Counted from the stretch's first letter, positions 2,526-30,372 are shown. The stretch is 64,000 bases of DNA from an uncultured Nitrososphaerota archaeon (GCA_963799845.1 CAWCYI010000004.1:1152001-1216000); one strand, 5' to 3'. Program-made: numbers and translations. The notes: generated by a model not told the origin, from the letters alone.

Positions 2526-3863
2526 CTGAAAGATAATTCGGGGGATATTCTTCAAAGGCTCAGCGAGAGAATAGCCGCGAGTAACAGGATTCTCTACTAT
2601 CCACTTTTAGTCAAGAAAGCCCGTGGAAGTATGATCACGGACGTCAGTGGAAAAGAGTACCTTGATTTCAACGCGAGCTGGACGGTTGCGGGACTGGGCT
2701 ATTCGAATCCGACCGTTATTGATGCGATCAAAGAAGAGCTCGAGTCAAGCGCGGGGCTCGCAACTTGCACGTTTCCGAATGAAACCATTTTGAAGTTTGC
2801 CGACGAACTCGCCGCGATCACGCCTGGAAACTTTGCGAAAAAAGTTTGGTTCGGGCATTCGGGAAGCGATGCGTGTGGAGCGGCCTACAAACTGCTGCCT
2901 ATATCCACTAAGAGGCCCAGAGTCTTCTCATTCTATGGCGGCATGCACGGCACAGACTTGGCGGGTATCGCCATGGGAGGTCATCCCTCAACATCGAAGT
3001 ACCAAGTTCCCAGTCTCGTTTCGAAGGTCCCGTACGCATACTGCTACAGATGCCCCTACGGTCTGGAGTATCCGAGCTGCGGAGTATACTGCGCCAGCGA
3101 CTTTATCGAGGACCAGCTTTTCAAGTACATTAGTGTCCCAGATGAAACCGCCTTCATGATAGTTGAAGCGATGCAGAGTGACGGGGGTGATATTGTTCCA
3201 CCAAAAGAGTATCTAAAAAAACTCAAGCAGACGTGCGATAAATTTGGCATCCTCTTAGTCGCAGACGAAGTAAAGCTGGCACCTAGCAGGACCGGTAGAC
3301 TCTTCGCTGTCGAGAATTACGGAGTCGACCCCGATGCGGTGGCAATGGGGAAATCGATAGCTTCAGGGATGCCGGTAGGGGCGCTTGTCGCCGGTCGGGA
3401 CCTCCTAGAAGGGGCGTTCCTGGCTTCGACGTTGGCGGGGAACTCGATAGTTGCGGCAGCGGGGCTCGCAACGATAAAACTGTTGAAAGAAGAAAGCTTG
3501 CTCAAGAAGGTCGCCAAACTGGGGGACGAGCTCAAGACAAGACTGGAGGAGATGAAGGAGCGACATGAAATAATCGGAGATGTGCGCGGAAAGGGACTGT
3601 TCGTCGGAATCGAGTATGTCAAGGATGGGAAGACGAAAGAACCTGCGAGGCTGGAAACTGCCAAGATTGTTTACCGGGCTTGGCAGCTTGGTTTAATCAC
3701 CGTATTCGTCGGCCCGGATCAGAACGTCATGGAGCTGACACCGCCTCTAATCATAACCCATGAGGAAGTCGAAAAAGCAGCGGACATACTGGAGAAAGCC
3801 ATCTCGGATGTTGAGAAGGGAGTCGTTCCGGATTCTCTCGTAAAGGATTTTGCCGGATTCTGA
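2526..3863 (+). CDS. Class III aminotransferase-family PLP enzyme (possible amino-acid racemase)
   Basis: DVSGKEYLDF, SGSDA, QSDGG, DEVK, GKSIASGMP, GDVRGKGL; frame is open and homologous upstream of ATG 2631 (YPLLVKKARGS) back to CTG 2526. Confidence 0.85.
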   Translation: MKDNSGDILQRLSERIAASNRILYYPLLVKKARGSMITDVSGKEYLDFNASWTVAGLGYSNPTVIDAIKEELESSAGLATCTFPNETILKFADELAAITPGNFAKKVWFGHSGSDACGAAYKLLPISTKRPRVFSFYGGMHGTDLAGIAMGGHPSTSKYQVPSLVSKVPYAYCYRCPYGLEYPSCGVYCASDFIEDQLFKYISVPDETAFMIVEAMQSDGGDIVPPKEYLKKLKQTCDKFGILLVADEVKLAPSRTGRLFAVENYGVDPDAVAMGKSIASGMPVGALVAGRDLLEGAFLASTLAGNSIVAAAGLATIKLLKEESLLKKVAKLGDELKTRLEEMKERHEIIGDVRGKGLFVGIEYVKDGKTKEPARLETAKIVYRAWQLGLITVFVGPDQNVMELTPPLIITHEEVEKAADILEKAISDVEKGVVPDSLVKDFAGF

Positions 3864-3892
3864 TTTCCCGAGAGAAACGTAAGAGGCTCCCC

Positions 3893-5140
3893 TCAACAGA
3901 TCTTGGAGAAAAGTAAGTTTTGCTTTTCCATGGCATCTGGATCTTTTATTTGCACAGCCGTCATTATCGGAATCGGGTCAAACTTCATCCAGCTTCCTTG
4001 CTTGAGTTTTCGCGATAATCTCACTGCCCGATCGGCTTCCCACAGCAATTTCTTTGCTGTCTTTGGAGCACCTCCGTATCCTGCGTTCACAAAATTGCTG
4101 CTTTCGCTTGTAATTTGGATCGAGATAGCATTCTTTCCGTACAGGTCCATTGCCAAAGGATGGCTCTTCTCCAGTTCCATGAAACTCGCACCGCAGTCTA
4201 TCATCTTGTCCAGGCCGTTGATCCGCACACTTGAAACTAGCGCGGGATAGCGCCCTTTCCTTCTCCCCGAAAGGTGCCAGCGCGCCAATTCCTCCGGCTC
4301 GGCTTTGGGAACTAGTTGCGCACCAAGTTGATCTATCTCTCGTTCCGTAACGACAGCTCGGTATTTGGTCGTGGCTACGCAAACGTTCGTTAGAACCTTC
4401 AGCTTTACGATTTGATCTCGGACTTCAGGCCGCAGATCAGTCGCGCCAGGTTCAAGGTATCCACCCGCCGCTACCTTCGCTAGCGCCTCCTTCGCAGAAA
4501 GCCCATCTCCGACGCCGGCAAGAAATAGATTCAAACTAGAGTTATCCCTCTTGATTACAACGCCTTCGCGACGTCCAAGAATTGAATCAAGCAATGGGAC
4601 GTACTCTGACTGATCGGCCCAGACTCCCAGAGTGCAATTTAGGCTGAGAAGAGTTTTGTGGTCTGTAGCCAAAGAGAAAAGCTTGCTGCAGTACTTTCGG
4701 TTTGCCCATGCTGTCTTGTTGGCAGTTATCAGGGCACTTACTCCCATAACGTTGGAAGAAATTTTGTAACAGTCCGCTGCATCCAGATGGGTGGAATCTA
4801 TTATCATCCAATTTTTTGGCTCACTGCTTATTTCTTCCTCGATCAAACTTATCTCCTCTCGCAAAGTCCGAAAGTCAGTTAACTTCAGAGATGCAGGCAT
4901 TCTGGAATCATCTGAATTATTCTTCGAGACGTGAGATTTTGATCTTAGTATCCATTTAAGATCCGATGGATCGAGTGCCTTTCCATCATTACGTCCGAAA
5001 AGCTTAGTACTGTCCGCTATCCATCTAACTTCGAAATTCGTGGGAGGATTCGAACAAATATATTCGACGACTTTTCTTCCAACGCTTCCCAATCCCAGAA
5101 TTCCGAGTCTGGGTTGGAGCCTCTTCTGATTCGTTCGCAA
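3893..5140 (-). CDS. Divergent homoserine dehydrogenase-like NAD(P)-binding protein
   Basis: GILGLGSVG Rossmann motif, ITANK, GYLEP...D...K, GYGGAPKTA resemble homoserine dehydrogenase blocks. Confidence 0.6.
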   Translation of the reverse strand: MRTNQKRLQPRLGILGLGSVGRKVVEYICSNPPTNFEVRWIADSTKLFGRNDGKALDPSDLKWILRSKSHVSKNNSDDSRMPASLKLTDFRTLREEISLIEEEISSEPKNWMIIDSTHLDAADCYKISSNVMGVSALITANKTAWANRKYCSKLFSLATDHKTLLSLNCTLGVWADQSEYVPLLDSILGRREGVVIKRDNSSLNLFLAGVGDGLSAKEALAKVAAGGYLEPGATDLRPEVRDQIVKLKVLTNVCVATTKYRAVVTEREIDQLGAQLVPKAEPEELARWHLSGRRKGRYPALVSSVRINGLDKMIDCGASFMELEKSHPLAMDLYGKNAISIQITSESSNFVNAGYGGAPKTAKKLLWEADRAVRLSRKLKQGSWMKFDPIPIMTAVQIKDPDAMEKQNLLFSKIC

Positions 5141-5161: not shown

Positions 5162-6349
5162 TCATGCGAAAAGCAATCTCTTAATTCCGTCCGAAATAAT
5201 TTTCTCGTCGCCGTCAGCGAGATGCATTGTGTTGATCTCCAAGCTATTTTCACCATGATGGTACAGCCAGATCGAAGGATCGCCGTCTCTGAGTTTCCGG
5301 TTCAAGTTCGCGACTTCATTGGCCGTCTTCTTTTCGAACGTGACCTTTAGCCCGAGCTGGTGATAGCCGATTCCGTCGACAAGATCTTCAGGCCAGACCG
5401 AGAAACTAAGATGCTGAACATCGGAAAGGGCACCCTGCAATTTCTTAATCTTCTGGCGCGCGGGATCGATCCGATCCTTATTGTGATCCATTTTCACCCA
5501 TCTTTGCAGAGCTGCAAGCGTCCCTACGATCTCCTGCCTATCGAGCTTGTAGCCTCTGCCCACGCTTCTGTAAAATCCAGGTTTGGGGTCGTAGCTCCCA
5601 GCTTCCTGACCGATGAAACTATGCAGTGACACCGTTTCGATCAGGTCTCTTTTGCCGCAGACCCATCCAGCTGAATTTGCGCCCTGCACATATTTTGCAG
5701 CATAGCAGACGAGATCGGCTCCCATCTTGGTAAACCTGCTTAGGAGTTCGATAGGATAGGTCTGGCCCGCAGCATCGACAATGATCGGAACTCCGTGCCT
5801 CTGCCCGATTTCTATGATCTCTTCGAGCGGGATGATGTCATTTCTTGAATTGGGATAGTCTGGTACCATAAAGTGTATCGCGGCGGTCTTGTCGCTGATC
5901 GCGGATTCGAGATCTTTCGGACGCGCTCCCCACACCTCGTGTCCAACTTGAACAAATTTTCCACCGGGAACTTCCATGCTCCTATCGTACATTCCGGGCT
6001 CACCGGCATGCGCGCCCCTGAGATTTCTCTGGATTATGATTTCATTCTTCATGCCGTCAGCGTATGGAAGGCGTCTCATTTTCTCCGGATCCTTTCCAGC
6101 GATGCACGCTGCAGCCGACAAAACAAGAGCAGCAAAGGAGCCAGACGTGACATGGGCTGCCTCTGCAGAACAAATACGCGCAATGGCGTTTCCAACCTTC
6201 TCCTCGAGTTCCCAGATTCCACACCAGTTGTTCGTCGATTCCTCCATCGCATCGAGGACCTCTTTCGGAATTACTGAACCCCCGAGGCGAGTAATCGGAA
6301 ACTGCCCGTTTACTACGCGTCGAACGCCAAGATCTTTGTAAGAGCTCAT
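5162..6349 (-). CDS. SelA-like PLP-dependent enzyme (DgaE/SelA-related family)
   Basis: LGVRRVVNG...TRLGGS, VPIIVDAA, GADLVCYAAKY, GRGYKLDRQEIVG. Confidence 0.8.
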   Translation of the reverse strand: MSSYKDLGVRRVVNGQFPITRLGGSVIPKEVLDAMEESTNNWCGIWELEEKVGNAIARICSAEAAHVTSGSFAALVLSAAACIAGKDPEKMRRLPYADGMKNEIIIQRNLRGAHAGEPGMYDRSMEVPGGKFVQVGHEVWGARPKDLESAISDKTAAIHFMVPDYPNSRNDIIPLEEIIEIGQRHGVPIIVDAAGQTYPIELLSRFTKMGADLVCYAAKYVQGANSAGWVCGKRDLIETVSLHSFIGQEAGSYDPKPGFYRSVGRGYKLDRQEIVGTLAALQRWVKMDHNKDRIDPARQKIKKLQGALSDVQHLSFSVWPEDLVDGIGYHQLGLKVTFEKKTANEVANLNRKLRDGDPSIWLYHHGENSLEINTMHLADGDEKIISDGIKRLLFA

Positions 6350-6509
6350 TACTTCTCGATATCCCGCTAGAAGCGGCTCGACCCCGGCATTTTTAATGTT
6401 AAGGTGCTATCAGATTCGCGATCGTCTGCCTTACGCGACAAGTCTCCTAGTTTGACAATTAGTTCACAATATATGCAATCAGACTTGATCAAAACGTGGT
6501 TTCATAATA

Positions 6510-7340
6510 ATGAAAAGTTTGAGCTCGACAAAAGAAGGTTTTTTCGAGGACATTAACGGGAAAACTGCTATCGTTACCGGATCGACAAAAGGCATAGGGC
6601 TGGAAATCGCTAGGATCCTACTATCTTCAAAGGCCAATGTCATTGTGAATTCTCGCAACAAACAAGATGTAGAGACTACCGTTGTAAGATTACGATCCGA
6701 GCCTGAATTCAGGGGATCGGTGATCGGACTACCTGGAGATGTGGGCGTCTATGAAAAATGTGAAACGTTGGTCGAACAAACAGTCCAGCACTTTGGCAAG
6801 GTAGACGTGTTGGTGAATAATGCGGGAACTTCCATGATCAGTGACAGCCTCGAACTGCAAAAAGAAGATTGGGAAAAAACAATCAGAACCAATCTATCAG
6901 GTCCCTTCTTCATGTCCCAGGTTTGCGGCAGAGTAATGGCGAAGAACGGCGGTGGTTCGATAATCAATATCTCTTCGATATTCGGTGGGGGTGGTGTGCC
7001 TAAGAGGCTCGCGTACTGCTCCTCGAAGTTCGGACTGAACGGTCTTACCAAGACGTTGGCCACCGAATGGGCGCACTACAACATCAGAGTGAATGCTGTC
7101 TCTCCTGGTTACATCAAGACGCCCATGGATGTCGGAGATCAAACTTCAGGTGGATATTCGGCCGAGGAGATCAATCGAAGAACCCCCGCGGGGAGGTACG
7201 GGACTGCCCGCGAGGTAGCACAAGTAGTATTGTTCCTGGCTTCGGATTTCTCCTCTTACATCACGGGAGCCAATTTACGTGTGGACGGAGGGTGGCTCGC
7301 ATACGTCGGCTGGGATAAACTTCTGAATGAACTAGATTAA
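6510..7340 (+). CDS. Short-chain dehydrogenase/reductase
   Basis: TGSTKGIG, NNAG, YCSSK, VNAVSPG, DGG. Confidence 0.95.
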   Translation: MKSLSSTKEGFFEDINGKTAIVTGSTKGIGLEIARILLSSKANVIVNSRNKQDVETTVVRLRSEPEFRGSVIGLPGDVGVYEKCETLVEQTVQHFGKVDVLVNNAGTSMISDSLELQKEDWEKTIRTNLSGPFFMSQVCGRVMAKNGGGSIINISSIFGGGGVPKRLAYCSSKFGLNGLTKTLATEWAHYNIRVNAVSPGYIKTPMDVGDQTSGGYSAEEINRRTPAGRYGTAREVAQVVLFLASDFSSYITGANLRVDGGWLAYVGWDKLLNELD

Positions 7341-7432
7341 AGTTCTGAGATCGGGTGAGTTATCGCTAGAAAAAATTACGTTCTCAAAATCAAATTTTCT
7401 TGAATAGTTATCTTCCAGTTGTCGTCGGCCAT

Positions 7433-8483
7433 CTAATTACCTCCGAAATCGATAGCTTCGTCTTTTAGCGATCTTGGAATGTTAGCGAAAACGTCTGTGA
7501 TGAGGCTTTCCTCCGGAGGAGGCGAAATATTTTCCGTCGATTTGGTCGCGGCTGCAATTTCAGATTGTACTTCCTCTGCAAGCTTCTTCTCGATCTCTTG
7601 CGTCAAGATCGACATTGAATACAACTGATTCTTGAATAGCGTTATTGGATCTCTCTTTTTCCATTCTTCAACCTCCTCCTTTGTTCTGTATTTTTTCCAA
7701 TCGTCGGAAGAAGAGTGCGGGCTATAGCGATAAGTGACGCATTCCAGCAAAGTTGCTCCCTGCCCCTTCAGAGCCCGATCTCTCAGCTTCAGAAACAGCT
7801 CTCTGAACTGCAAAAAAGTCGTTACCATCGATTGTCTCTCCATGGATCCCATACGCCCTCGCTTTCATGGAAATGTTTTCGGAAGCAGTTTGTCTTTTGA
7901 GGGGAACCGATATTGCGTATTGATTGTTTTCGCAAACGAAAATACAAGGTGCCTTAAAGACGCCTGCAAAATTCAAAGCTACGTGAAATTCGCCTGACGA
8001 CGTCGCGCCATCACCAAAGTATGAAATGGCGACAATATCCTCTTTGTTCATTTTTGCCGCCATGGCGAAGCCGACCGAGATCTGTAAGTTGCTGGCTATA
8101 GGGGCAGAATTGCTGAAGATACGGTTTTCTCTGTAGGAATATAGATTTGGCAAATCTCTCCCTTTCATATCATCGGAAGCATTTCCAAAATATCGGTTTA
8201 GCAACTGTTTGACCGTAACGCCAAGCGCTAAAAGAACTCCTTGATCCCTATAATATGGGAAAATATAGTCATGTTTCGTAATGCCATAAACACTCCCGAC
8301 ATGCGTAGCCTCATGTCCGGCTGAGGAAGTGTAAGACCCGATCTTTCCTTGGTTATGCAACGCCAGAGCTTTCGAATCCAGCAGTCTCGTAAGCAGCATT
8401 AGACGATAAGCATTCAGTAAATCCTGTTTTGTGAGCCCGCTTTGTCGCAATCTCGAATTGTGCGTCTGAATATCCTCTATCAT
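7433..8483 (-). CDS. pdhA: 2-oxoacid (pyruvate/branched-chain) dehydrogenase E1 alpha subunit; apparent frameshift near 7780
   Basis: GDGATSSG...ENNQYAIS TPP motif in 7722..8483; LLECVTYR..PHSSSDD...YR...DP in 7433..7852. Confidence 0.85.
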
Positions 8484-8539
8484 TATCCAGTTATTGCAGG
8501 GGCTCTTGAATGATTACTTATATCCTTCCAATTTCAATC

Positions 8540-9871
8540 TCAAAGTAACCACTCCTCTCGTTCGACCGATCTCTTCTTGACTCCCAATTTTGATCCGCGA
8601 TAAGATACTTTTCCATAAAGTGATGCTTCGCCATCAGGACCTTCTCGGTACACACTGTCTACTATTCTTCCAAGCGCATCAGCTTTCATTATTCCGCTTC
8701 CACTGTCGCCTCCGACCACAATCAAATTTTCATGTGCGAAAACATACGGGAGATAGTCAAGTGTATTGTAGGCAATGAGTCCCGCCCACATACTACTGGG
8801 GCCAAGATTTTCAAAGTGGGGAAAGTACGATGTCAGGATCGGATAGATTTGTTTCTGATAGTAAGATGGTTCAGCGTTGTACTTTGCCATATCGAAATCG
8901 GGCAAGTTCAAGAATTCCCTATTCACTTCATCATCGCAGCCGATCCAGAATTGTTCTCCCATCTGGACCGATTTCAAGTATATCGAAGACTTTGGTAAGA
9001 TCGTAAATGGCATTATTCCATAGTTGTTGAAACCTTCGGTGGAAAGCATCTTTTGCAGTTCATTACTTGTGCTGGTGTTTATCTGGAAAATCTGTCTCTT
9101 CTTTGATTTTACATGGCCGTCCAACCCGATTGGTTCGAGGAGAACGTTATTCCAGGCGCCGCCTGCAAGAACAATTGTTTCGGCGTAAATATTTCCATCA
9201 AGGAGCCCTTTCACTTGAACCCCCGCTATTCTAGTCTCCTGCCAAACGAAGGGTTCGTCTTCAATATTCAGTTTCTTTTGTGGTTCGACAAGAAGCTTTG
9301 TCGCTCGAGTACCAAATTGGCATCGTCCTCCCATGGCAATGAATTGGTCATAGTAGAATCTCGTAAGTTTATCAGGCTCAAGTTTGCCACACTTTACGCC
9401 AAAAACAGCACCATTGATGTTTTCCAAATCCATCGCCGCCGCCCCGACATTAGATGTTTCGAAGGTAGTGGTTAGCCCTTGAATCGAATGCTCCAACTCT
9501 TCCTTTGAGTAAATCTTGAGCTCGATCCCGTTCCCGGTCATCCTATCAATGTTCTTCGCATTGAGCTTGAATTGTCGGTCGCTCATTAGCCAGAGATAGC
9601 CGATAAGCTGCAAGCCAAGATCGATCCCGATCTTTTCCTGAACGTTCAGATAATAGTCGATTGATGTATCTGCAAGAACTTGGTTATCGGGTGAGGTAAA
9701 CGTGTTCCTGAACATAGCCGCGCTCCTGCCCGTGCCGGCTTGCCCGACATCTCCGAGATTGTCGATTACCAAAATCTTCTTTGAACGATTGTTTGACAAG
9801 AGATGGTAAGCGGAGGCCATTCCCAGCACGCCTGCACCTATCACAAGAATATCAAACTGAGAATCCGTCAA
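8540..9871 (-). CDS. FAD-dependent oxidoreductase, DAO/sarcosine oxidase beta family
   Basis: VIGAGVLG, GTGRSAA, LAGGAW, WAGL, SGSGIMK. Confidence 0.88.
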   Translation of the reverse strand: MTDSQFDILVIGAGVLGMASAYHLLSNNRSKKILVIDNLGDVGQAGTGRSAAMFRNTFTSPDNQVLADTSIDYYLNVQEKIGIDLGLQLIGYLWLMSDRQFKLNAKNIDRMTGNGIELKIYSKEELEHSIQGLTTTFETSNVGAAAMDLENINGAVFGVKCGKLEPDKLTRFYYDQFIAMGGRCQFGTRATKLLVEPQKKLNIEDEPFVWQETRIAGVQVKGLLDGNIYAETIVLAGGAWNNVLLEPIGLDGHVKSKKRQIFQINTSTSNELQKMLSTEGFNNYGIMPFTILPKSSIYLKSVQMGEQFWIGCDDEVNREFLNLPDFDMAKYNAEPSYYQKQIYPILTSYFPHFENLGPSSMWAGLIAYNTLDYLPYVFAHENLIVVGGDSGSGIMKADALGRIVDSVYREGPDGEASLYGKVSYRGSKLGVKKRSVEREEWLL

Positions 9872-23864: not shown

Positions 23865-24110
23865 TTAGGTGCCGCAAGAACCAGTCATGGTCACATTGTT
23901 GAAGTCAATACCGTTGAAGGCAGTGTTATACCACATTCCAGTTACGCAGGTGTTCCAGATGTACGGACCTATACCTGCGCCTGGATCGAAGAGATCGAGA
24001 TCCTGTCCTAACCAGATGAATCCAGCCTGTTGGACTAGATCGCTTGTGATCTGTGATATTTCCTGAGCCCTGAGAGTGGAGTTCAGCTGAGAATTGCTCT
24101 CAACGATCAG
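23865..24110 (-). pseudogene. 3' remnant (81 codons plus stop) of the interrupted ABC substrate-binding protein gene
   Basis: Reads LIVESNSQLNSTLRAQEISQITSDLVQQAGFIWLGQ...GSCGT*, in frame with ...NQTIAN of the 5' part once 24111-27541 is removed. Confidence 0.9.
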
Positions 24111-24120
24111 GTTAGCTATC
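24111..24120. repeat. Left copy of target-site duplication GTTAGCTATC (core 8-mer TTAGCTAT)
   Basis: Identical to 27542-27551. Confidence 0.92.
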
Positions 24121-24201
24121 AGACTAGACTAAATAAGAAAGACATAGAAGCATAAGCAAGAAGAGAGGCTACCCAACACACGCAACACACACACACACTC
24201 A
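24120..24201 (+). repeat. Left terminal inverted repeat (82 bp)
   Basis: CAGACTAGACTAAATAAG...GCAACACACACACACACTCA is the exact reverse complement of 27461-27542. Confidence 0.97.
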
Positions 24202-24333
24202 TTTCTTATTGAAACAAAGTGCTCTATGATTCTTGAAACAATACTCACAAACTTTAGAATTGTGAAAAGGGCAATATCTGAAATAAACTGATAATGCTCT
24301 ATTACAATCTGCGCATGTTTCCAGAGTTTGCAT
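24199..24333 (-). CDS. 44-aa Cys/His-rich putative Zn-finger (B-box/AN1-like spacing)
   Basis: MQTLETCADCNRALSVYFRYCPFHNSKVCEYCFKNHRALCFNKK*; ATG abuts the previous stop; its TGA lies in the TIR. Confidence 0.7.
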   Translation of the reverse strand: MQTLETCADCNRALSVYFRYCPFHNSKVCEYCFKNHRALCFNKK

Positions 24334-24471
24334 CTACATTCTTTCTGTATTTCTCTTTAGTTTAGAGCGCTCTCTGTCTGCCTTCAGGTCTGCTTTCAAA
24401 ATCTCTCTTTCTTGTTTAGAAAGTTCTTTTCGAATATTCCTGAATGCTTTCTTGATTTCTCTGTCTACCAT
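24334..24471 (-). CDS. 45-aa charged, coiled-coil-like hypothetical protein
   Basis: MVDREIKKAFRNIRKELSKQEREILKADLKADRERSKLKRNTERM*; tightly packed between neighbours. Confidence 0.55.
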   Translation of the reverse strand: MVDREIKKAFRNIRKELSKQEREILKADLKADRERSKLKRNTERM

Positions 24472-24475
24472 TTTC

Positions 24476-24622
24476 TCACATTCTCTCTAATGCGGTTCTA
24501 GCACTTTGAACCATATTCAAACGCTGTTTTCTCTTTCTCTCTTCCTCTTCGAGTTTCATTTTTCTTAATTTCTGTGCGTCTATTTCGTTTTCTGTTTCTT
24601 CATACTTTGCTTTATCATTCAT
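24476..24622 (-). CDS. 48-aa charged, coiled-coil-like hypothetical protein
   Basis: MNDKAKYEETENEIDAQKLRKMKLEEEERKRKQRLNMVQSARTALERM*; ATGA overlap with the upstream stop. Confidence 0.6.
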   Translation of the reverse strand: MNDKAKYEETENEIDAQKLRKMKLEEEERKRKQRLNMVQSARTALERM

Positions 24623-24816
24623 AATTTCTCAACTTTACCTCTAGATTTATCGCCATACTTTTTCTGAAATTCCTCTAAATTTTTCACTTCGAATACTTGA
24701 TGTTGCTGTTTTGTATGAGCAATTGCGTCTTTTTTCGAATTGAGATACCCTCTGCATGTTGGATAAGTGCAGTAGTAAGTTTTCTGTTTTCTATGTAGTC
24801 CTAACAATTTAATCAA
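24619..24816 (-). CDS. 65-aa C2H2 zinc-finger protein
   Basis: YYCTYPTC-x12-HTKQQH; TTGA overlap with the upstream stop. Confidence 0.75.
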   Translation of the reverse strand: MIKLLGLHRKQKTYYCTYPTCRGYLNSKKDAIAHTKQQHQVFEVKNLEEFQKKYGDKSRGKVEKL

Positions 24817-24983
24817 ACTCTGTCTTTATACCGTTCATCATAACTGATTTCCTCTTCTCTCTGAATTGCTTCCTTTTCTCTTTGTAATCGTTTTGCTCTA
24901 ATTTCTTGTTTCATTTTCTCTGCCCTTTCTCCGTGAACTTTTGTCGTTTCAAACACTTCCAAAATGTATTTTCTTAAATTCAC
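24813..24983 (-). CDS. 56-aa charged hypothetical protein
   Basis: MNLRKYILEVFETTKVHGERAEKMKQEIRAKRLQREKEAIQREEEISYDERYKDRV*; GTGA overlap with the upstream stop. Confidence 0.55.
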   Translation of the reverse strand: MNLRKYILEVFETTKVHGERAEKMKQEIRAKRLQREKEAIQREEEISYDERYKDRV

Positions 24984-25132
24984 TTCGCAGTTTTCCGTTT
25001 AGCCTTTAGGGCATAATAGCGCTGTAACTGATATTCTATGCGTTCTCTTCTATGCGTGTAGTAATACTTTGTTTGGTAGACCAAACGTTCAAGTCTATAC
25101 ACTTTATTTTCTAATTGCTTTATTCTGTCCAT
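24980..25132 (-). CDS. 50-aa basic Tyr-rich hypothetical protein
   Basis: MDRIKQLENKVYRLERLVYQTKYYYTHRRERIEYQLQRYYALKAKRKTAK*; starts 4 nt after the upstream stop. Confidence 0.6.
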   Translation of the reverse strand: MDRIKQLENKVYRLERLVYQTKYYYTHRRERIEYQLQRYYALKAKRKTAK

Positions 25133-25136
25133 AGTC

Positions 25137-25466
25137 TCAACTTGATGTTAATTTTACAAATCTGCCGTTCTTCGCCCTAGCAACGAGTATCTTTCTACCA
25201 TTTCGATTAACAGTGTCTAATCTGTAAAATGGGGAAATTCTAGGTCTAGGTCTTTCTACGATTTTTCTTTCTTTAACGCTTAGACGTTCTGGTTTTACTA
25301 GTCCCTTTTCTTTCCATTGGTCTAATTGTGCTTGAACTAGTCTATCGTTTCCATTGAAGAGATTAACAAGTTGTGATTCATCCTTTCTACCCTCTTCTCT
25401 AACAATGCGTTTTAGAAAATCGAGTGCATCCTTATAGTGAGAATGTTCAGAACGTCTATGCACCAA
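25137..25466 (-). CDS. 109-aa basic hypothetical protein, probable nucleic-acid binder
   Basis: Arg/Lys-rich, C-terminal RAKNGRFVK; in-operon spacing. Confidence 0.65.
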   Translation of the reverse strand: MVHRRSEHSHYKDALDFLKRIVREEGRKDESQLVNLFNGNDRLVQAQLDQWKEKGLVKPERLSVKERKIVERPRPRISPFYRLDTVNRNGRKILVARAKNGRFVKLTSS

Positions 25467-25468
25467 AA

Positions 25469-25768
25469 CTAATATTCACTTCTAAATTGTGCTAGAATAA
25501 TCGAGTGTCTTTGAATGCAAAAGAAACAAAGCCTAAACGGCATATTGATAACGCTCTCATAGTTAGAGCAAAATAACCATACTGTTTTTCGTATGTTACA
25601 TTCTGAGCAAAATCGACGACTTCGAGATAAGGAAATATCGAAGGTATCGCGTAGACTCCCATCTCTCACTCTAACGCTTCCATTATTGGAAACTGGCGAG
25701 TTGTAGACTAAATCCTCAAAATTCTTTGAGGAACGATCACTGTTTACGCTTTCTATCTTCGAGAGCAT
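25469..25768 (-). CDS. 99-aa protein with putative Zn-binding C-terminus
   Basis: CSEC...C...LCFFC...H. Confidence 0.65.
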   Translation of the reverse strand: MLSKIESVNSDRSSKNFEDLVYNSPVSNNGSVRVRDGSLRDTFDISLSRSRRFCSECNIRKTVWLFCSNYESVINMPFRLCFFCIQRHSIILAQFRSEY

Positions 25769-25775
25769 AATTCAT

Positions 25776-26063
25776 TCACTTCTTTTTTTCAGGAATATGA
25801 TTCCCGTTTGAATCAGTGGAAAGTTCTCCAGTTTCTAGCGGAGCAAAAGAAATATTTTCGTTTTCATCTTCGATTAATTCTCCAGAGTCAATTAGTAGTT
25901 TAATAACTTCATCTTTTACATAACGGCTCGTATGTCCTGATTTTAGAGCAAGAACCGCGATTGCCTTTCGCTTCGCACATGGAACAATCGTTTTCAAAAC
26001 TTTGAAGGCAAACTGCCTACTTTTCTTATTATCATCCATCGGGTCTATAGTGCCAAAAACCAT
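25776..26063 (-). CDS. 95-aa putative winged helix-turn-helix protein
   Basis: KAIAVLALKSGHTSRYVKDEVIKLLIDSGELIEDENENISF resembles a wHTH recognition helix plus wing. Confidence 0.55.
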   Translation of the reverse strand: MVFGTIDPMDDNKKSRQFAFKVLKTIVPCAKRKAIAVLALKSGHTSRYVKDEVIKLLIDSGELIEDENENISFAPLETGELSTDSNGNHIPEKKK

Positions 26064-26065
26064 TT

Positions 26066-26233
26066 TCAGTTCTCACTATATACTGTTCGTAAACCTACAC
26101 GTTCAGCACAACTATAGCATATTCCGATACGTTGAGAGACAATCCAACATAGTTCTAAATCCCTCACTTGATTCTTGCAGTATCCGCATTTGTAATAAGT
26201 CAGGTGATTTTCTTCATACTGAGTCTCTAACAT
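26066..26233 (-). CDS. 55-aa C4 zinc-finger protein
   Basis: MLETQYEENHLTYYKCGYCKNQVRDLELCWIVSQRIGICYSCAERVGLRTVYSEN*; first gene of the leftward operon. Confidence 0.65.
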   Translation of the reverse strand: MLETQYEENHLTYYKCGYCKNQVRDLELCWIVSQRIGICYSCAERVGLRTVYSEN

Positions 26234-26298
26234 TATTTCTTTCCCAAAAGATAGGGTTCGTAAACCCTTAACTATCGCCTTAAAGTAAAACTAACCTC
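26234..26298. promoter_or_regulatory. Divergent promoter/control region of the element with a short inverted repeat
   Basis: Only sizeable non-coding gap inside the element; AGGGTT-cgta-AACCCT at 26253-26268; AT-rich boxes. Confidence 0.5.
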
Positions 26299-26760
26299 AT
26301 GCCACTTAGTAAGGAACGAATGAAAGACTACATGAAAAAATACCGTAAGAGGAATCCTGATTATCAATTTGAAGATAAAATTGCGTCTAGAATGCGAATG
26401 AGACAACGAAGGAAGAGATTTTCAAAACTCGGAGATTCTCCAATCAGTAATACGATAACTGAGGAAAATACCCTTAGAGAAAGAGCAGACTCGCTTTCAA
26501 AGAAAATTGTGAAACATAATCCTAACCTTAATGAGAATGAATTCAAGACGGAAGAAACAATTTTAGAATTGATGAAAACCATTCAGCAATTTGATTCTGA
26601 ACCCAATTACGAATTCTTTCTTAGGTATGTTGCCGAATATTATTGGAAAATAAAAAACGCTCGCACTTTGCCAATACAAAAACTCGTTCAACAATTTGAA
26701 CCGAAATATCTGCGTGCTACAGAGAGATATTTCGAGATTTATCTTAAGGGGAGAATTTAG
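26299..26760 (+). CDS. 153-aa hypothetical protein, basic N-terminus; possible DNA-binding partner of the integrase
   Basis: MPLSKERMKDYMKKYRKRNP...RMRMRQRRKR; stop 1 nt before the integrase ATG. Confidence 0.7.
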   Translation: MPLSKERMKDYMKKYRKRNPDYQFEDKIASRMRMRQRRKRFSKLGDSPISNTITEENTLRERADSLSKKIVKHNPNLNENEFKTEETILELMKTIQQFDSEPNYEFFLRYVAEYYWKIKNARTLPIQKLVQQFEPKYLRATERYFEIYLKGRI

Positions 26761-26761
26761 T

Positions 26762-27463
26762 ATGCTCGAAGTTATCACAAAGCCGAATTCTCTTTGGGTT
26801 GCAGATTTCTGTTTTCTCACTCGAAGAATACCTAAGAAGTTTCACGATTACCGTCTATACAATAAACCGCACACTCCTAGACCTAGAGGAAATACACGAA
26901 TCAATATCGGGGAAAATGTAGTCTTTCTGCCTAAATGGTTGCGTTGGAATTACGATAGTTCTCAGTTCAATAAATGGACTAGACGAGAATTCAAACCTAA
27001 AGATAGAATCAAAGTCTATGATTCTCCAGTGGTTCTATTCGCTATTCAAGATGTGGCATCTCGTCTGATAGTGCATGCTTGTCTAAAACATGCACCAAAA
27101 GAAATTGTTTCACGGTCTTATCAGTATCCTCACTGGTTCAAATTAGACGAATGCCTTAAACAATCTCTTCAAACTCTGCCTAACTATTCTCATAAACTTC
27201 ATTTCGCTTTAGATTCAATGATTCAGAGAAAATATTCAAAGAGTGTTTTGGGTAAATGGATAGATACCTTTCCAATTACTAGCGAGAGTAAGTTTCTAAG
27301 TTCAACACTCGAAGCATTTTTCGGGAGATTACAATACGAGTTTCGAGACGATCTAACTCAAAAGAACCTAGATACTTACATCAAATTTTGGAATAATGAA
27401 AGGACAATGAAGGTTTTGAATAATAAGACCCCTTCGAGCATTTACTATTCAGATTACTATTGA
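26762..27463 (+). CDS. DDE integrase/transposase catalytic core (rve; IS3/IS481/retroviral-like)
   Basis: PNSLWVADF, FAIQDVASRLIV, FALDS, LEAFFGRLQYE, YIKFWNNER..KVL.NKTP; GGGGAG RBS 8 nt before ATG 26762; its TGA is the inner end of the right TIR. Confidence 0.85.
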   Translation: MLEVITKPNSLWVADFCFLTRRIPKKFHDYRLYNKPHTPRPRGNTRINIGENVVFLPKWLRWNYDSSQFNKWTRREFKPKDRIKVYDSPVVLFAIQDVASRLIVHACLKHAPKEIVSRSYQYPHWFKLDECLKQSLQTLPNYSHKLHFALDSMIQRKYSKSVLGKWIDTFPITSESKFLSSTLEAFFGRLQYEFRDDLTQKNLDTYIKFWNNERTMKVLNNKTPSSIYYSDYY

Positions 27464-27542
27464 GTGTGTGTGTGTGTTGCGTGTGTTGGGTAGCCTCTCT
27501 TCTTGCTTATGCTTCTATGTCTTTCTTATTTAGTCTAGTCTG
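27461..27542 (-). repeat. Right terminal inverted repeat (82 bp)
   Basis: TGAGTGTGTGTGTGTGTTGCGTGTGTTGGGTAGCC...TAGTCTAGTCTG. Confidence 0.97.
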
Positions 27543-27551
27543 TTAGCTATC
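27542..27551. repeat. Right copy of target-site duplication GTTAGCTATC
   Basis: Identical to 24111-24120. Confidence 0.92.
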
Positions 27552-28949
27552 GTTTGGTTGTGGAAGTTTCCGAATGTGTTAAACTGAGAGTCCACGATAA
27601 ATTCGTATGCACTGAAATCCGGATAATATGTCCAGTTGATCATGACCATGTACGGCGCTGTTGAATTTGCGCCGGGAGTGTCCTGAAGACCTATTAGGGC
27701 GGTGGCTGTCAGTTCCTGAGTCTGGATATTGATTCCAATAGCGCCGAGATCCTGCTTGACGATCTGTACGACCAGCGCAGCGTAAGCGCTAGTGTACCAG
27801 TCGAGGTTGATCGTCGGGAACCCCTGTCCATTCGGATATCCGGCCTGCGCCAGTAATTTCTTGGCGTTAGAAACATTGTATGGAAGATTTTGTATTGAGC
27901 TGTTGTAATAATTGAATATGCTTGGCATTGGACCTACAACTGGCTGCGCATAACCATCGTAAACAATGGACTGGATCTGCGAGATGTTTATCGCTTCAAT
28001 CATCGCCTGCCTTACGAGAGTGTTGTTGGTTGGACTTTTCAAAGAGTCAATGTTTATCCACTCAATCGAGCCAGACGTACCGGTGTTTGGTATGTAACAG
28101 GTCGTGCACGCCGATAATACGCTCTTGATGTCGTTGAACGATACGATTGCTGATTGTACTTTTCCAGTCTCCAAATCTTCGGTCCTTGTGAGCTCATCAG
28201 TCGGGTATTGAATCAAAACCTTCGGTATCTTTGCAGGTTCCAAGATCAGATTGCTGGTCATGTTCTGCCCCCAGTAGTGAGGATTTGCGATCAGGAGAGC
28301 GTATTGATTGACAACATATGTTTGAGTGATGTAAGGAGCATCCCCAACTGTGCTGCCATTTACAGACATCCATGAGTTTGGGGTGTTGAGAGCTACGCCA
28401 CCATTTTGTTGCACAACATAGGGATCAACAAATACCCAAGGTGCCGTATCGATGCTCTCCAAGAATGCCACGAATGGATTTGTCAAATGGAACTGGACTG
28501 CGGTTGAATTCACCACGGTAACACTATTGGCAGGATTCTGCATAATTTGTAGCAACGTTGAATTGGATCCTGGAGCGTTCAGAGCATTATCGAGGGAGTT
28601 AACATCTCCGGGTGTCACTCCAGAGGTATTGAAATATGTGAAGAAGATGAAATCGGCAGCCTGGTTAATGATGAGATCTCTGTAGATATTGTACCAGACA
28701 ACGTACGCGTTGAAAGGATCTCCGTTGTCGTAGTAAACGCCTGATCGCAGGTTAAAGGTGTAAGTGAGACCGTTTGCGCTCTGACTCCAGCTATCGGATA
28801 GCACTGGGATTAGGGTCGTGCAGCTGGGATTAGCGCAGAACGTCAGAGGAAGTTGGGTGTTCTGGGCTATCTCCAGACCATTGTTATCTATTGCCGCCGC
28901 CGGATCGCCGGTCGTTGGCGCGGAACCTTCATCGACGATCAGCTCTTGA

Positions 28950-29140
28950 GTCGAGGAAGATGATGAGCTGGATGATGAGGAGCTAGAGGACGAGGAGCTT
29001 GATGAAGAAGAACTAGAAGATGAAACAGGAGAAGTTGACGACGATTGAGATGTGGTTGGGGTTTGTGAGGACGAACTCGTCACAGGTGGAGCAGAACTGG
29101 AAGACGAAGTGGTTACAGGAATAGTGGTTGTAGTGGTTGA
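28950..29140 (-). repeat. Low-complexity Ser/Thr-rich linker coding region
   Basis: Poly-Ser/Thr run encoded by mixed codons. Confidence 0.8.
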
Positions 29141-29274
29141 CTTTGGAAGTGCCACATAGATACCAGCAGCAGCGATTATTATTATGACAATAACGACGAT
29201 TGCAATAACGGCCCTTGAAACGGCTCGGTTTCTATTCTTGGAAAGATTCATTGACAATCGCCCCAAGCACGGTT

Positions 29275-29283: not shown

Positions 29284-30372
29284 TAGGAGTTACGCGGTTG
29301 ACCCAAGAAGATAGATTGGGTGTGCAATGTCACTCCTTATCGCATCTCTGACGATTCTCGCCTTCGCTTCGTACCAGCTTATCCCGGTCATCAATCTGCA
29401 CAATTCTAGACGTATGAACGCCCTTATTGACATGTGGATGTGATTCAGAATGGATGTCGCCTTCCTGACCTGAGCCCTCTCAATGCCACAACACTGCTTG
29501 ACTCCTCTGTGGTACTCCTCGATTCCCCATCCTTGGTCAGAGAGTTCATCTCTCTTTTCCTCATTCATCCCAACGTCATCGGTAGCCCAGTGTTCAATGT
29601 CTCCTTTCTTGGAGGCTGTCCTGAACACCCTGACCATTCCGAATCCCATGAGATGAACCGTGGTTCCCTCAGGCGGGATCTCCACGTCCTTGATTGGTTT
29701 GTTTCCTTTTTTTCTGCCCGTTGGATTGACGAGCCTGTTCTCCTTGAGGCGGCAGAAGAAATGCCACCCGAGCTCCCTTGCGATGAGCTTCAGATTTTCC
29801 ATGCTCGAGTACCAGCTGTCAAAGAGGACGTATTTTGGTTCCATCCCTCTCTGCTTTGCAACCAACAACATGTCCTGGAAGTGATCGTTCTTGGTGAGAC
29901 CGTCTTTTGACGCATTGTAGAGTCTAAAGTCACATGGAATGAGGGCGTTACCATCGCTCCATAGTGTTGTGATGAGATTTATCCCCTTCACCACACTGTG
30001 GTGTTTTCCGCTCCAGTGGTACGTGACGTAATCCATCTTCTCCGCGTACGGTTTGTCCAGAGTTGAATCATCGACTATCAGTACTCCTCCCGCAGTAACG
30101 GCGATGATCCTCTTCGCCTCATCCCAGAGCGCTTCTGTATCCGCAGGCAGTCTCTCCAGAAGGCGGGTGAAGCTATCGTGTGCTGGCGGCGTGACTCCTG
30201 CATCATCATCAGGCTGACATCTAGCAGCTTCGGTGCAAGCGAATGATTTCTGGGATGCTATCAGGAAGTCTATGTAGTCATTGTCATCGCATTTTGGAGG
30301 GTTCATGCAGCGTCTGATGAACCAGAGAAACAATCCTGGCCAAATTCTTTTCGGCCAAATGCGTAACTCCTA
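29284..30372 (-). mobile_element. IS701-family insertion sequence (1089 bp)
   Basis: 12-bp IRs TAGGAGTTACGC (29284-29295) / GCGTAACTCCTA (30361-30372); 5-bp direct repeat TATAC at 29279-29283 and 30373-30377. Confidence 0.9.
29290..30306 (-). CDS. IS701-family DDE transposase
   Basis: HDSFTRLL, LIVDDSTLDKPY, VLFDSWY, WGIEEYHRGVKQ; ATG 30306 (MNPPKC). Confidence 0.88.
   Translation of the reverse strand: MNPPKCDDNDYIDFLIASQKSFACTEAARCQPDDDAGVTPPAHDSFTRLLERLPADTEALWDEAKRIIAVTAGGVLIVDDSTLDKPYAEKMDYVTYHWSGKHHSVVKGINLITTLWSDGNALIPCDFRLYNASKDGLTKNDHFQDMLLVAKQRGMEPKYVLFDSWYSSMENLKLIARELGWHFFCRLKENRLVNPTGRKKGNKPIKDVEIPPEGTTVHLMGFGMVRVFRTASKKGDIEHWATDDVGMNEEKRDELSDQGWGIEEYHRGVKQCCGIERAQVRKATSILNHIHMSIRAFIRLELCRLMTGISWYEAKARIVRDAIRSDIAHPIYLLGSTA

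Follow-up and report, generated by a model that had tools for sequence, protein, structure and literature searches.

A compact inverted-repeat DNA transposon of a Nitrososphaerales archaeon, with a putative bare DDE transposase core and a leftward string of ten candidate micro-protein genes

Insertion sequences (ISs) of the IS481 family are one-gene elements of about 1–1.5 kb, whose single transposase carries an N-terminal helix-turn-helix fused to the catalytic domain. Unit transposons and the elements for which ISfinder uses the term “transporter IS” (tIS), of the Tn3 and Tn7 types, enclose within one repeat pair the transposase together with further genes, in sets varying between relatives. 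Small zinc-finger and winged-helix proteins are typical of the accessory genes of archaeal viruses and plasmids. As regards IS481, the relevant passages of one source describe the duplication of a palindromic NCTAGN target and, as a feature of the family, stop codons of terminal genes at the repeat edges (PMC2516522). In a 2019 survey of integrated elements in Thaumarchaeota, transposons with passenger genes are stated not to have been detected in archaea, and the thaumarchaeal casposons described there have a polymerase of family B (PMC6563490). Full-text literature searches brought up no later account of an archaeal element of this kind. Here we analyze a previously undescribed 3.4-kb element, referred to as E1, which occupies positions 24113–27549 of a 64,000-nucleotide stretch (hereinafter “the window”; GCA_963799845.1, CAWCYI010000004.1:1152001-1216000) from an uncultured Nitrososphaerota archaeon; its host is taken to be a Nitrososphaerales (thaumarchaeal) soil archaeon.

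On the minus strand of 24199–26233, the listing of open reading frames (ORFs) returns ten consecutive ORFs of 44–109 amino acids (aa), which we name p1 to p10 in minus-strand order. A prior reading of the window made without any database (the sequence-only reading) had described a hidden operon of ten tightly coupled micro-proteins, and each of them came back with the limits and length that it had given: p1 (26066–26233, 55 aa), first gene of the putative leftward operon, p2 (25776–26063, 95 aa), p3 (25469–25768, 99 aa), p4 (25137–25466, 109 aa), p5 (24980–25132, 50 aa), p6 (24813–24983, 56 aa), p7 (24619–24816, 65 aa), p8 (24476–24622, 48 aa), p9 (24334–24471, 45 aa) and p10 (24199–24333, 44 aa), the last gene. 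From p1 to p10 the junctions measure 2, 7, 2, 4, −4, −4, −4, 4 and 0 nucleotides (nt), a range of −4 to +7 nt that bears out the proposed tight coupling, and the TAG stop of p9 directly abuts the ATG of p10 in the same frame. On the minus strand, 0.997 of these 2035 nt are taken up by the chain of ORFs (40 aa or longer); on the opposite strand the coverage is 0, no ORF of that length being present. Such a tiling had been judged beyond chance, and so it proved: among 2000 dinucleotide-preserving shuffles, each scored on its better strand, the mean coverage was 0.37 and the maximum 0.79, none (0/2000) reaching 0.997. Six of the ten ORFs fall below 60 aa, the default cut-off of an ORF list, which fits the earlier remark that six had been missed by an ORF track. 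When the six frames were compared by a codon model that left out stop codons and had been trained solely on the genes of other elements, the annotated frame came out best in p2, p4, p5, p6, p7 and p8 (6/10, with approximately 1.7 expected by chance). A codon model that scored stop codons had favored 12 of 12 ORFs; it was discarded as biased, and the stop-free model was used instead.

The string of ten coupled genes does not stand by itself: it is the leftward arm of E1, which measures 3437 bp (3425 bp if its outer TAGCTA hexamers are a target duplication), with a GC content of about 0.36 vs. about 0.48 in its flanks. Two terminal inverted repeats of 89 nt, 99% complementary to each other, delimit the element (left, 24113–24201; right, 27461–27549). 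Each is organized as an AG-rich tract followed by a CA-rich tract; the outer TAGCTA hexamers lie at 24113–24118 and 27544–27549, and the inner three nt are the stop codon of p10 on the left side and that of gene B on the right. From left to right, E1 would comprise the left repeat, the ten genes from p10 to p1 on the minus strand, the divergent control region of 65 nt, genes A and then B on the plus strand, and the right repeat. Protein A (26299–26760, plus strand) is a basic protein of 153 aa (pI 9.8), and B (26762–27463, plus strand, ATG at 26762) is a DDE transposase of 233 aa. The divergent intergenic region (26234–26298) is the sole non-coding stretch within E1 besides the repeats; it includes GGGTT-CGTA-AACCC at 26254–26267 as well as the 11-mer GTTCGTAAACC, which recurs at 26085–26095 (direct-repeat family D4), and it presumably holds both promoters and an operator. 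No Rfam match was obtained in 23900–27800 at E-values up to 0.1. The sequence-only reading had also likened the string to those typical of archaeal viruses and plasmids. The carrier is an archaeal mobile element indeed, and a virus or plasmid is not supported, since E1 is an inverted-repeat transposon with a DDE (rve-type) transposase.

A second copy, E2, is found at G000:C6:951053-955621, on another contig of the same genome (G000; nine contigs, 4.6 Mb) and between different flanks, with one mismatch in its first 2647 bp. The two copies are 99.96% identical, which indicates that the element has been recently active rather than decayed. In E2, an IS630-like element of 1123 bp (C6:951852–952974), flanked by a 3-bp duplication, splits the copy at the very junction of A and B. 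In metagenome contigs carrying the E2 flank, agreement with the window stops precisely at 24112/24113 and 27549/27550, and a 240-nt contig from a separate study crosses the left junction with no differences; the boundaries and copies of E1 are established. Some further details of the copies are worth recording. The IS630-like element has 18 copies in the genome, of which 16 are full-length at 100% identity, one is cut by a contig end and one is 99.9% identical. The inner (CA)n tract of the repeat (27461–27480 in the window) differs by 6 bp (GTGTGT) between E1 and E2, and repeat positions 7–8 vary over the four ends of both copies (TC, AC, AC, AG), the remainder being identical.

The same genome contains a more distant relative, E3 (C6:111998–117575, locus L015), with the same layout, inverted repeats of 119 nt and a transposase 40% identical to B; the repeats of E1, E3 and a further related locus (L018) share the AG-rich then CA-rich order despite their diverged sequence. 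These relatives, together with a structural model, support the placement of B in the retroviral-integrase (rve) superfamily of DDE transposases. The E3 enzyme exceeds the Pfam cut-offs of rve_3 (30.1 bits, cut-off 26.5) and rve_2 (25.0 bits, cut-off 22), and that of L018 the one of rve_2 (24.9 bits), in all cases with the C-terminal part only. The AlphaFold model of B, built from a 7-sequence alignment, reaches a pTM of 0.69 with residues 21–84 unmodelled, and its elements follow the order strand, strand, strand, helix, strand, helix, strand, helix of an RNase H-like fold. The top Foldseek matches in the PDB are retroviral integrases, TnsB, Mos1 and IstA (two with E ≤0.001); a search of the transposase profile against PDB sequences gave no meaningful match. 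The catalytic triad is D15, D151 and E184, the two aspartates being invariant in 7/7 sequences and position 184 being E in 4/7 and D in 3/7; these three positions fit the predicted structure (the first on strand 1, the second past strand 4 and the third on the helix that follows strand 5), in which an insertion of about 65 residues, poorly modelled, separates strands 1 and 2. Since the first catalytic Asp is residue 15, B has no N-terminal DNA-binding domain of its own.

Protein A has no family match in Pfam or NCBIfam, and the gene at its position differs among relatives: E3 has there an ArsR-type winged-helix protein (HTH_5, E 3.9e-8), and in a relative at locus L017 the place is taken by two small ORFs, 75 and 71 aa long, ribbon-helix-helix-like by eye and with no Pfam match. 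We presume A to be the DNA-binding partner of the transposase. A programmed frameshift fusion of A and B was considered and rejected, as B lies in the +1 frame relative to A in E1 and E3 but in +2 in L017; moreover, B has its own ATG one base past the stop of A.

The closest curated matches of the transposase are IS481 and IS3, and E1 shares with them the rve_3/rve_2 matches of its relatives and the terminal inverted repeats; with IS481 it also shares a 6-bp palindrome at both sides and the terminal-gene stop codons at the repeat edges. Nonetheless, these best NCBIfam matches cover only the last 30–45 residues of the E1 and E3 transposases, and the scores on the IS481 model NF033577 (19.9 bits for E1 and 33.6 bits for E3) are far below its cut-off of 224. 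Besides the score, B lacks the N-terminal helix-turn-helix, starting 14 residues ahead of its first catalytic Asp, and contains the mentioned insertion of about 65 residues between strands 1 and 2. The repeats of the E1 family are 89–119 nt long, vs. a few tens of nt in IS481 and IS3; E1 has 3.4 kb and twelve genes where these have one, its host is an archaeon and its transposase family is very rare. Membership of E1 in the IS481 family is therefore not supported, as score, domain architecture and size all fail.

Broadly, the ten products are small and mostly basic: pI is 9 or higher in 7/10 (p10 has 8.9) and none (0/10) is hydrophobic. Zinc-ligand-type Cys/His spacings are present in p1, p3, p7 and p10, the number of zinc-finger-like members that had been proposed (4/10). 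Thus, p1 shows a zinc ribbon pattern (CxxC-x19-CxxC) with weak Pfam zinc-ribbon matches only (E 0.08), p3 a C-terminal zinc-ribbon-like cluster (CxxC-x23-CxxC), p7 a C2H2 zinc finger pattern (C-x4-C-x12-H-x4-H; C16, C21, H34 and H39), and p10 eight Cys/His residues (C7, C10, C21, H24, C29, C32, H36 and C40) which, with the tiling, make it a candidate gene. The composition of p6 and p8 (charged) and of p9 (basic, pI 10.4) suggests helix, and p5 is Tyr/Arg-rich and basic (pI 10.2). By eye, p2 is winged-helix-like, with a C-terminal motif GELSTDSNGNHI followed by a Lys-rich tail. In p4 (pI 10.8), a basic linker joins a three-helix, winged-helix-like N-terminal part to a C-terminal beta-hairpin that closes with GRFVK; the weak match of p4 to the FeoC winged-helix family (E 0.005) is the best Pfam match among the ten. 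None of the ten proteins has a significant match in Pfam or PHROGs (best PHROGs E 0.043), 0/10 match NCBIfam, and against PADLOC none is better than E 0.01, the two weak matches (E 0.017 and 0.033) both belonging to p4.

We consider it fairly probable that the ten micro-ORFs are real, co-transcribed and translationally coupled genes, which form the leftward operon of an autonomous DNA transposon and whose small products serve the element. According to this proposal, B would be a bare DDE catalytic core of the retroviral-integrase superfamily, and a small protein encoded just upstream (A or its analogue) would bind the repeats in trans and recruit it. The element would insert at a short palindrome (here TAGCTA), probably duplicating it as IS481-family elements do. 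The ten products would be small, mostly basic nucleic-acid binders (four zinc-binding, two winged-helix-like, and four charged and helix-suggesting) that may act as regulators at the divergent control region and as architectural factors on the long, sub-structured terminal repeats, p4, p7 and p8 being the conserved core and the rest a variable set. Co-transcription of the string, the binding of DNA by its small products and any part that they play in transposition are inferred.

The strongest evidence for individual genes comes from conservation. The p8 protein is 56% identical to the product of an E3 ORF (L015 1115–1267; tblastn E 1e-12) and p7 is 45–47% identical to that of the neighboring one (L015 1264–1440; tblastn E 1e-11); both E3 orthologs adjoin the left repeat of E3, their frames are intact, the 4-nt p7/p8 overlap is preserved and all four p7 zinc ligands are invariant. 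The comparison between element copies suggested by the sequence-only reading gives synonymous divergence (pS) of 0.96 and 0.93 and nonsynonymous divergence (pN) of 0.32 and 0.28 for p7 and p8, respectively, with the E1/E3 transposase pair (pS 0.74, pN 0.43) as a reference; synonymous sites are saturated, and these two genes and p4, at the least, are under purifying selection. A prediction of a p7+p8 complex scored 0.00 and gave no support, which is evidence neither way. As for p4, it is 49% identical over 105 aa to a metagenome protein, P0009 (E 1e-34), an intact ortholog. In the ENA listings the longest contig is 8608 bp both for P0009 and for a transposase relative, P0005, which suggests, though it does not prove, a common contig, and the presumed transposase of the P0009 element is only 42% identical to that of E1. 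When the p4-family profile was searched against 1.84 billion representative proteins, six were found, P0009 being one of them and this genome contributing two; within a set of 21 related genomes, the family was found in this one only, at four loci. In a large word-seeded protein search p4 and p2 returned only themselves, blanks that are weak, as the method needs shared 5-residue words and P0009, at 49% identity, escaped it. ESM Atlas leads for p3 and p4 were all below 0.9 and were not used.

Two more proteins are conserved in part. The N-terminal 12 residues and residues 14–46 of p6 are homologous to E3 (E 1.5e-5), and the motif GELSTDSNGNHI of p2 matches in 10/12 residues a 115-aa protein of a Cas1 element described below, four of the ten identical residues using different synonymous codons. 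The start of p6 also has a peculiarity at the DNA level: its first 37 nt (24947–24983) are 86% identical to E3 (L015 1688–1724) despite saturated synonymous sites elsewhere, which could reflect a cis element or a recent exchange, and directly after this match E3 has a 1-nt indel, the two resulting frames, of 96 and 59 aa, being both open. On the sequence comparisons made, p4, p7 and p8 classify as conserved, p2 and p6 as partly conserved and p1, p3, p5, p9 and p10 as relative-less; at least p4, p7 and p8 are real genes by this evidence.

These patterns also bear on an alternative to which we give a minority share of belief, namely that the operon is cargo acting on the host or on competing elements (by anti-defense, takeover of host transcription, or toxin-antitoxin/addiction systems), while A and B alone move the element. 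It draws on the leftward gene sets, which differ among relatives of the same transposase (E1, E3, L017 and G004), on the zinc-finger and winged-helix character of the small proteins, a common trait of accessory genes in archaeal viruses and plasmids, and on the presence of two modules in an unrelated Cas1-type element, which suggests exchangeable cassettes. On the other hand, p7 and p8 are conserved as well as or better than the transposase (47–56% vs. 38–40%) and keep their relative order and 4-nt overlap in both elements carrying them, whereas p4 is 49% identical where the presumed transposase is only 42%. Furthermore, significant matches to PADLOC, PHROGs and NCBIfam amount to 0/10, and no toxin-like or membrane protein is found among the ten products. 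The host-modulation, anti-defense, toxin-antitoxin or DNA-packaging functions advanced by the sequence-only reading received no direct support, with no significant family match in PHROGs, NCBIfam or PADLOC, no library of anti-defense proteins being among those searched, and no packaging gene.

The variation between relatives can be described in some detail. The leftward arm of E3 is a string of tightly coupled small ORFs, in a partly different set (p9, for example, is not present in E3), and L017 likewise has tightly coupled small minus-strand genes whose content differs from that of E1; positions 1–607 of L017, minus strand, encode a protein with a DnaJ domain (E 2.4e-13) alongside a DUF7557 protein. 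In the relative of genome G004 (L016 2090–6438), an N6/N4 DNA methylase is accompanied by a GHKL-type ATPase protein of 790 aa and by a winged-helix protein of 339 aa. Insertions are seen in some of these relatives: an IS3-like element (112-aa orfA and 331-aa orfB; L015 ~2740–4000) interrupts the leftward operon of E3, and the transposase of the G004 relative is cut by an IS110-like insertion. E1 is in this sense like unit transposons and transporter ISs, as one repeat pair encloses a transposase and further genes in varying sets, and unlike them in that its extras are ten proteins of 44–109 aa with no recognizable adaptive function, of which three show the conservation of core genes.

The transposase family is rare. 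A word-seeded search of 5.8 billion proteins returned five; among 61 related genomes three have a match (this one, G004 and G007, the G007 copy with stops), and no match was obtained in 400 further genomes of the class or in 400 further genomes of the phylum, although many related genomes are fragmented and repeats may be missing from them. A search of genome contigs gave one locus, and a metagenome scan two short contigs. B has no relative in IMG/VR, phage records or plasmid records, and the p7 and p8 alignments have none in IMG/VR; the archaeal virus and IMG/VR searches that had been recommended thus brought up no relative with the queries used.

Weak tblastn matches of p4 led to another element of the same genome, E4 (G000:C4:233599–238771; locus L019 1100–6272), of 5173 bp and low GC, with perfect inverted repeats of 127 nt and a 13-bp target duplication, CCCACCATTTTTA. 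It has genes for Cas1 (PF01867, E 1.7e-44) and for a TrmB-type winged-helix protein, its small leftward genes form a string in which zinc ribbons occur, and no ORF has the size of a polymerase; E4 looks like a casposon without PolB. A 109-aa protein of E4 shares the C-terminal hairpin of p4 (...RxGKxVxVxxxKxGRFVK), and the hhalign comparison of p4 and P0009 with five E4-type proteins gave a probability of 77% (E 2e-5, 34 columns). Moreover, p2-like and p4-like genes occur in the same relative order in E1 and E4, both of which have a divergent two-operon layout. To judge from these sequence similarities, the shared modules hint at gene exchange between mechanistically different transposon types. 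E1 resembles casposons in its long terminal inverted repeats and thaumarchaeal host, besides the modules and layout shared with E4; it differs from them in having a DDE enzyme and not Cas1, and a target duplication of at most 6 bp vs. 13 bp in E4. Neither E1 nor E4 has the family B polymerase of the described thaumarchaeal casposons.

Other observations concern E4 and its surroundings. A low-GC remnant lies beside it (C4:~238772–241200; L019 ~6273–8700), with a second p4-like gene (74% identical to that of E4) and a 301-aa membrane protein, and may be a tandem or decayed second element. The genome has three Cas1 loci, none of them in E1; besides E4, these are C4:202687–203541 and C6:1748317–1748640, one 35% identical to the E4 Cas1 and the other partial and with a TGA. 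A 312-aa protein of E4 is Ser/Thr-rich, like the solute-binding protein of the window described below.

The E4 similarities speak for a second alternative, which appears unlikely to us: that E1 is an integrated minimal episome or satellite, whose operon is its core genome (regulation, recruitment of replication, helper-virus hijacking) and whose DDE or Cas1 integration module is interchangeable. E4, present in the same genome with Cas1, perfect 127-nt repeats, a 13-bp duplication and no polymerase gene, shares with E1 the p4 hairpin (hhalign E 2e-5), the p2 motif (10/12), the gene order and the divergent two-operon layout, and the very high coding density and the virus-like style of the proteins point in the same direction. 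E1 is like the gene strings of archaeal viruses and plasmids in its tiny zinc-ribbon, C2H2, winged-helix and charged, probably helical proteins, its 4-nt overlaps and the lack of family matches, and unlike them in its inverted repeats and DDE-based mobility. No structural, replication, capsid or packaging gene was found in E1 with Pfam and PHROGs, and searches with B, p7 or p8 brought up no sequence relative in IMG/VR or in the phage and plasmid collections. The segments shared with E4 are also short (34 and 12 residues), and both copies of E1 are chromosomal. Contigs from four runs include no joint that skips E1 or joins its ends, though rare forms are not visible in contigs.

The insertion site of E1 is a host gene of a peptide transporter, coding for a family-5 solute-binding protein (27530–29266, minus strand; SBP_bac_5, E 2.4e-53), which is truncated and receives its last residues and stop codon from the right repeat. 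The displaced 3′ part of this gene is found at the other side of the element (23870–24112, minus strand), where 80 residues without a stop match the ortholog; it begins LIVESNSQLNSTLRAQEISQITSDLVQQAGFIWLGQDLD and runs open leftward from 24110 for at least 80 codons. The ortholog of a same-genus genome is uninterrupted and 81% identical, with an open frame of 637 aa vs. 578 aa here. It reads across the site as ...CAG ACG ATA GCG AAC GAG... (QTIANE), where the flanks of E1 give QT-[IAN...] and ...LIVES, and this orthologous empty site has one TAGCGA; since the ortholog reads through the site, one copy of the hexamer is target DNA. TAGCTA is present at 4/4 ends of E1 and E2, and by analogy with IS481 the outer TAGCTA is probably the target-site duplication. 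No empty-site paralogs of E1, E2 or E3 were found in the genome, and the window has no tRNA gene, a tRNA-linked integration having been considered. Just upstream of the disrupted gene, positions 29290–30333 (minus strand) code for a 347-aa transposase of the DDE_5/DDE_Tnp_1 type (IS4-like), and the region around the binding-protein gene is an insertion hot spot. The binding protein itself has a long Ser/Thr-rich tract, with about 25 consecutive Ser, after its N-terminal membrane segment.

Several findings weigh against the proposal of a real operon serving a DDE transposon. On the side of mobility, B alone scores 17.0 bits on Pfam rve_2, below the cut-off of 22 (E 0.007). TAGCTA is palindromic, so a duplication of 0, 2, 4 or 6 bp fits equally, and the 6-bp version is favored on the precedent of the NCTAGN palindrome duplicated in the IS481 family. 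The ends of E3 show a 10-bp palindrome, GTTTATAAAC, and no further direct repeat. On the side of function, the variation of leftward content among relatives fits cargo as well as a self-serving role. The p4 structure, structure prediction having been proposed by the sequence-only reading, was modelled by AlphaFold with low confidence (mean pLDDT 60, pTM 0.28). As for the genes themselves, p1, p3, p5, p9 and p10 have no relative anywhere searched, the annotated frames of p1, p3, p9 and p10 are not preferred by the codon model, and no RNA run is listed for this DNA. Frame disruption in homologous elements, which the sequence-only reading had named as a sign against it, was found once, as the E3 homolog of p6 is split into two frames by a 1-nt indel; the frames of p7 and p8 in E3 and of p4 in P0009 are intact. 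That the small ORFs are chance frames in AT-rich DNA or fragments of decayed larger genes, as these five ORFs with no homolog, four with no codon preference, one frame-shifted relative and the absence of a listed RNA run as expression evidence might suggest, is nonetheless highly improbable given the tiling reached in 0/2000 shuffles, the opposite strand devoid of ORFs of at least 40 aa, the conservation of p4, p7 and p8 as separate ORFs with the same boundaries despite saturated synonymous sites, the paired CxxC at zinc-ribbon spacing in p1 and p3, and the 99.96% identity of two recently active copies.

E1 is thus a compact and recently active element with twelve genes, comprising a stripped-down DDE core, a presumed DNA-binding partner acting in trans and a set of partly conserved micro-proteins. 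For genome annotation, it shows that dense strings of genes of 44–65 aa can be real even if six of the ten members fall under common ORF length cut-offs, and that inverted repeats together with the comparison of copies can recover such small genes. On the functional side, p4, p7 and p8 lend themselves to study as candidate new small factors that control transposition. A bolder idea, in which we place limited confidence, is that the operon, rather than being cargo, represents a conserved core common to a new class of very small mobile elements of archaea, which would retain a genome of two divergent operons coding for tiny DNA-binding proteins and swap their integration enzyme (a bare DDE core in E1 and E3, and Cas1 with no polymerase in E4), with shared modules that would act on the long repeats or on a common host factor; the p4 hairpin (GRFVK) and the p2 tail (GEL-TD-NGNHI) are the candidate modules. 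If this were true, casposon-like and DDE transposons would be linked through a common accessory gene pool, and E1 and its relatives would be the first transposon family of archaea in which an accessory set of several genes is conserved.

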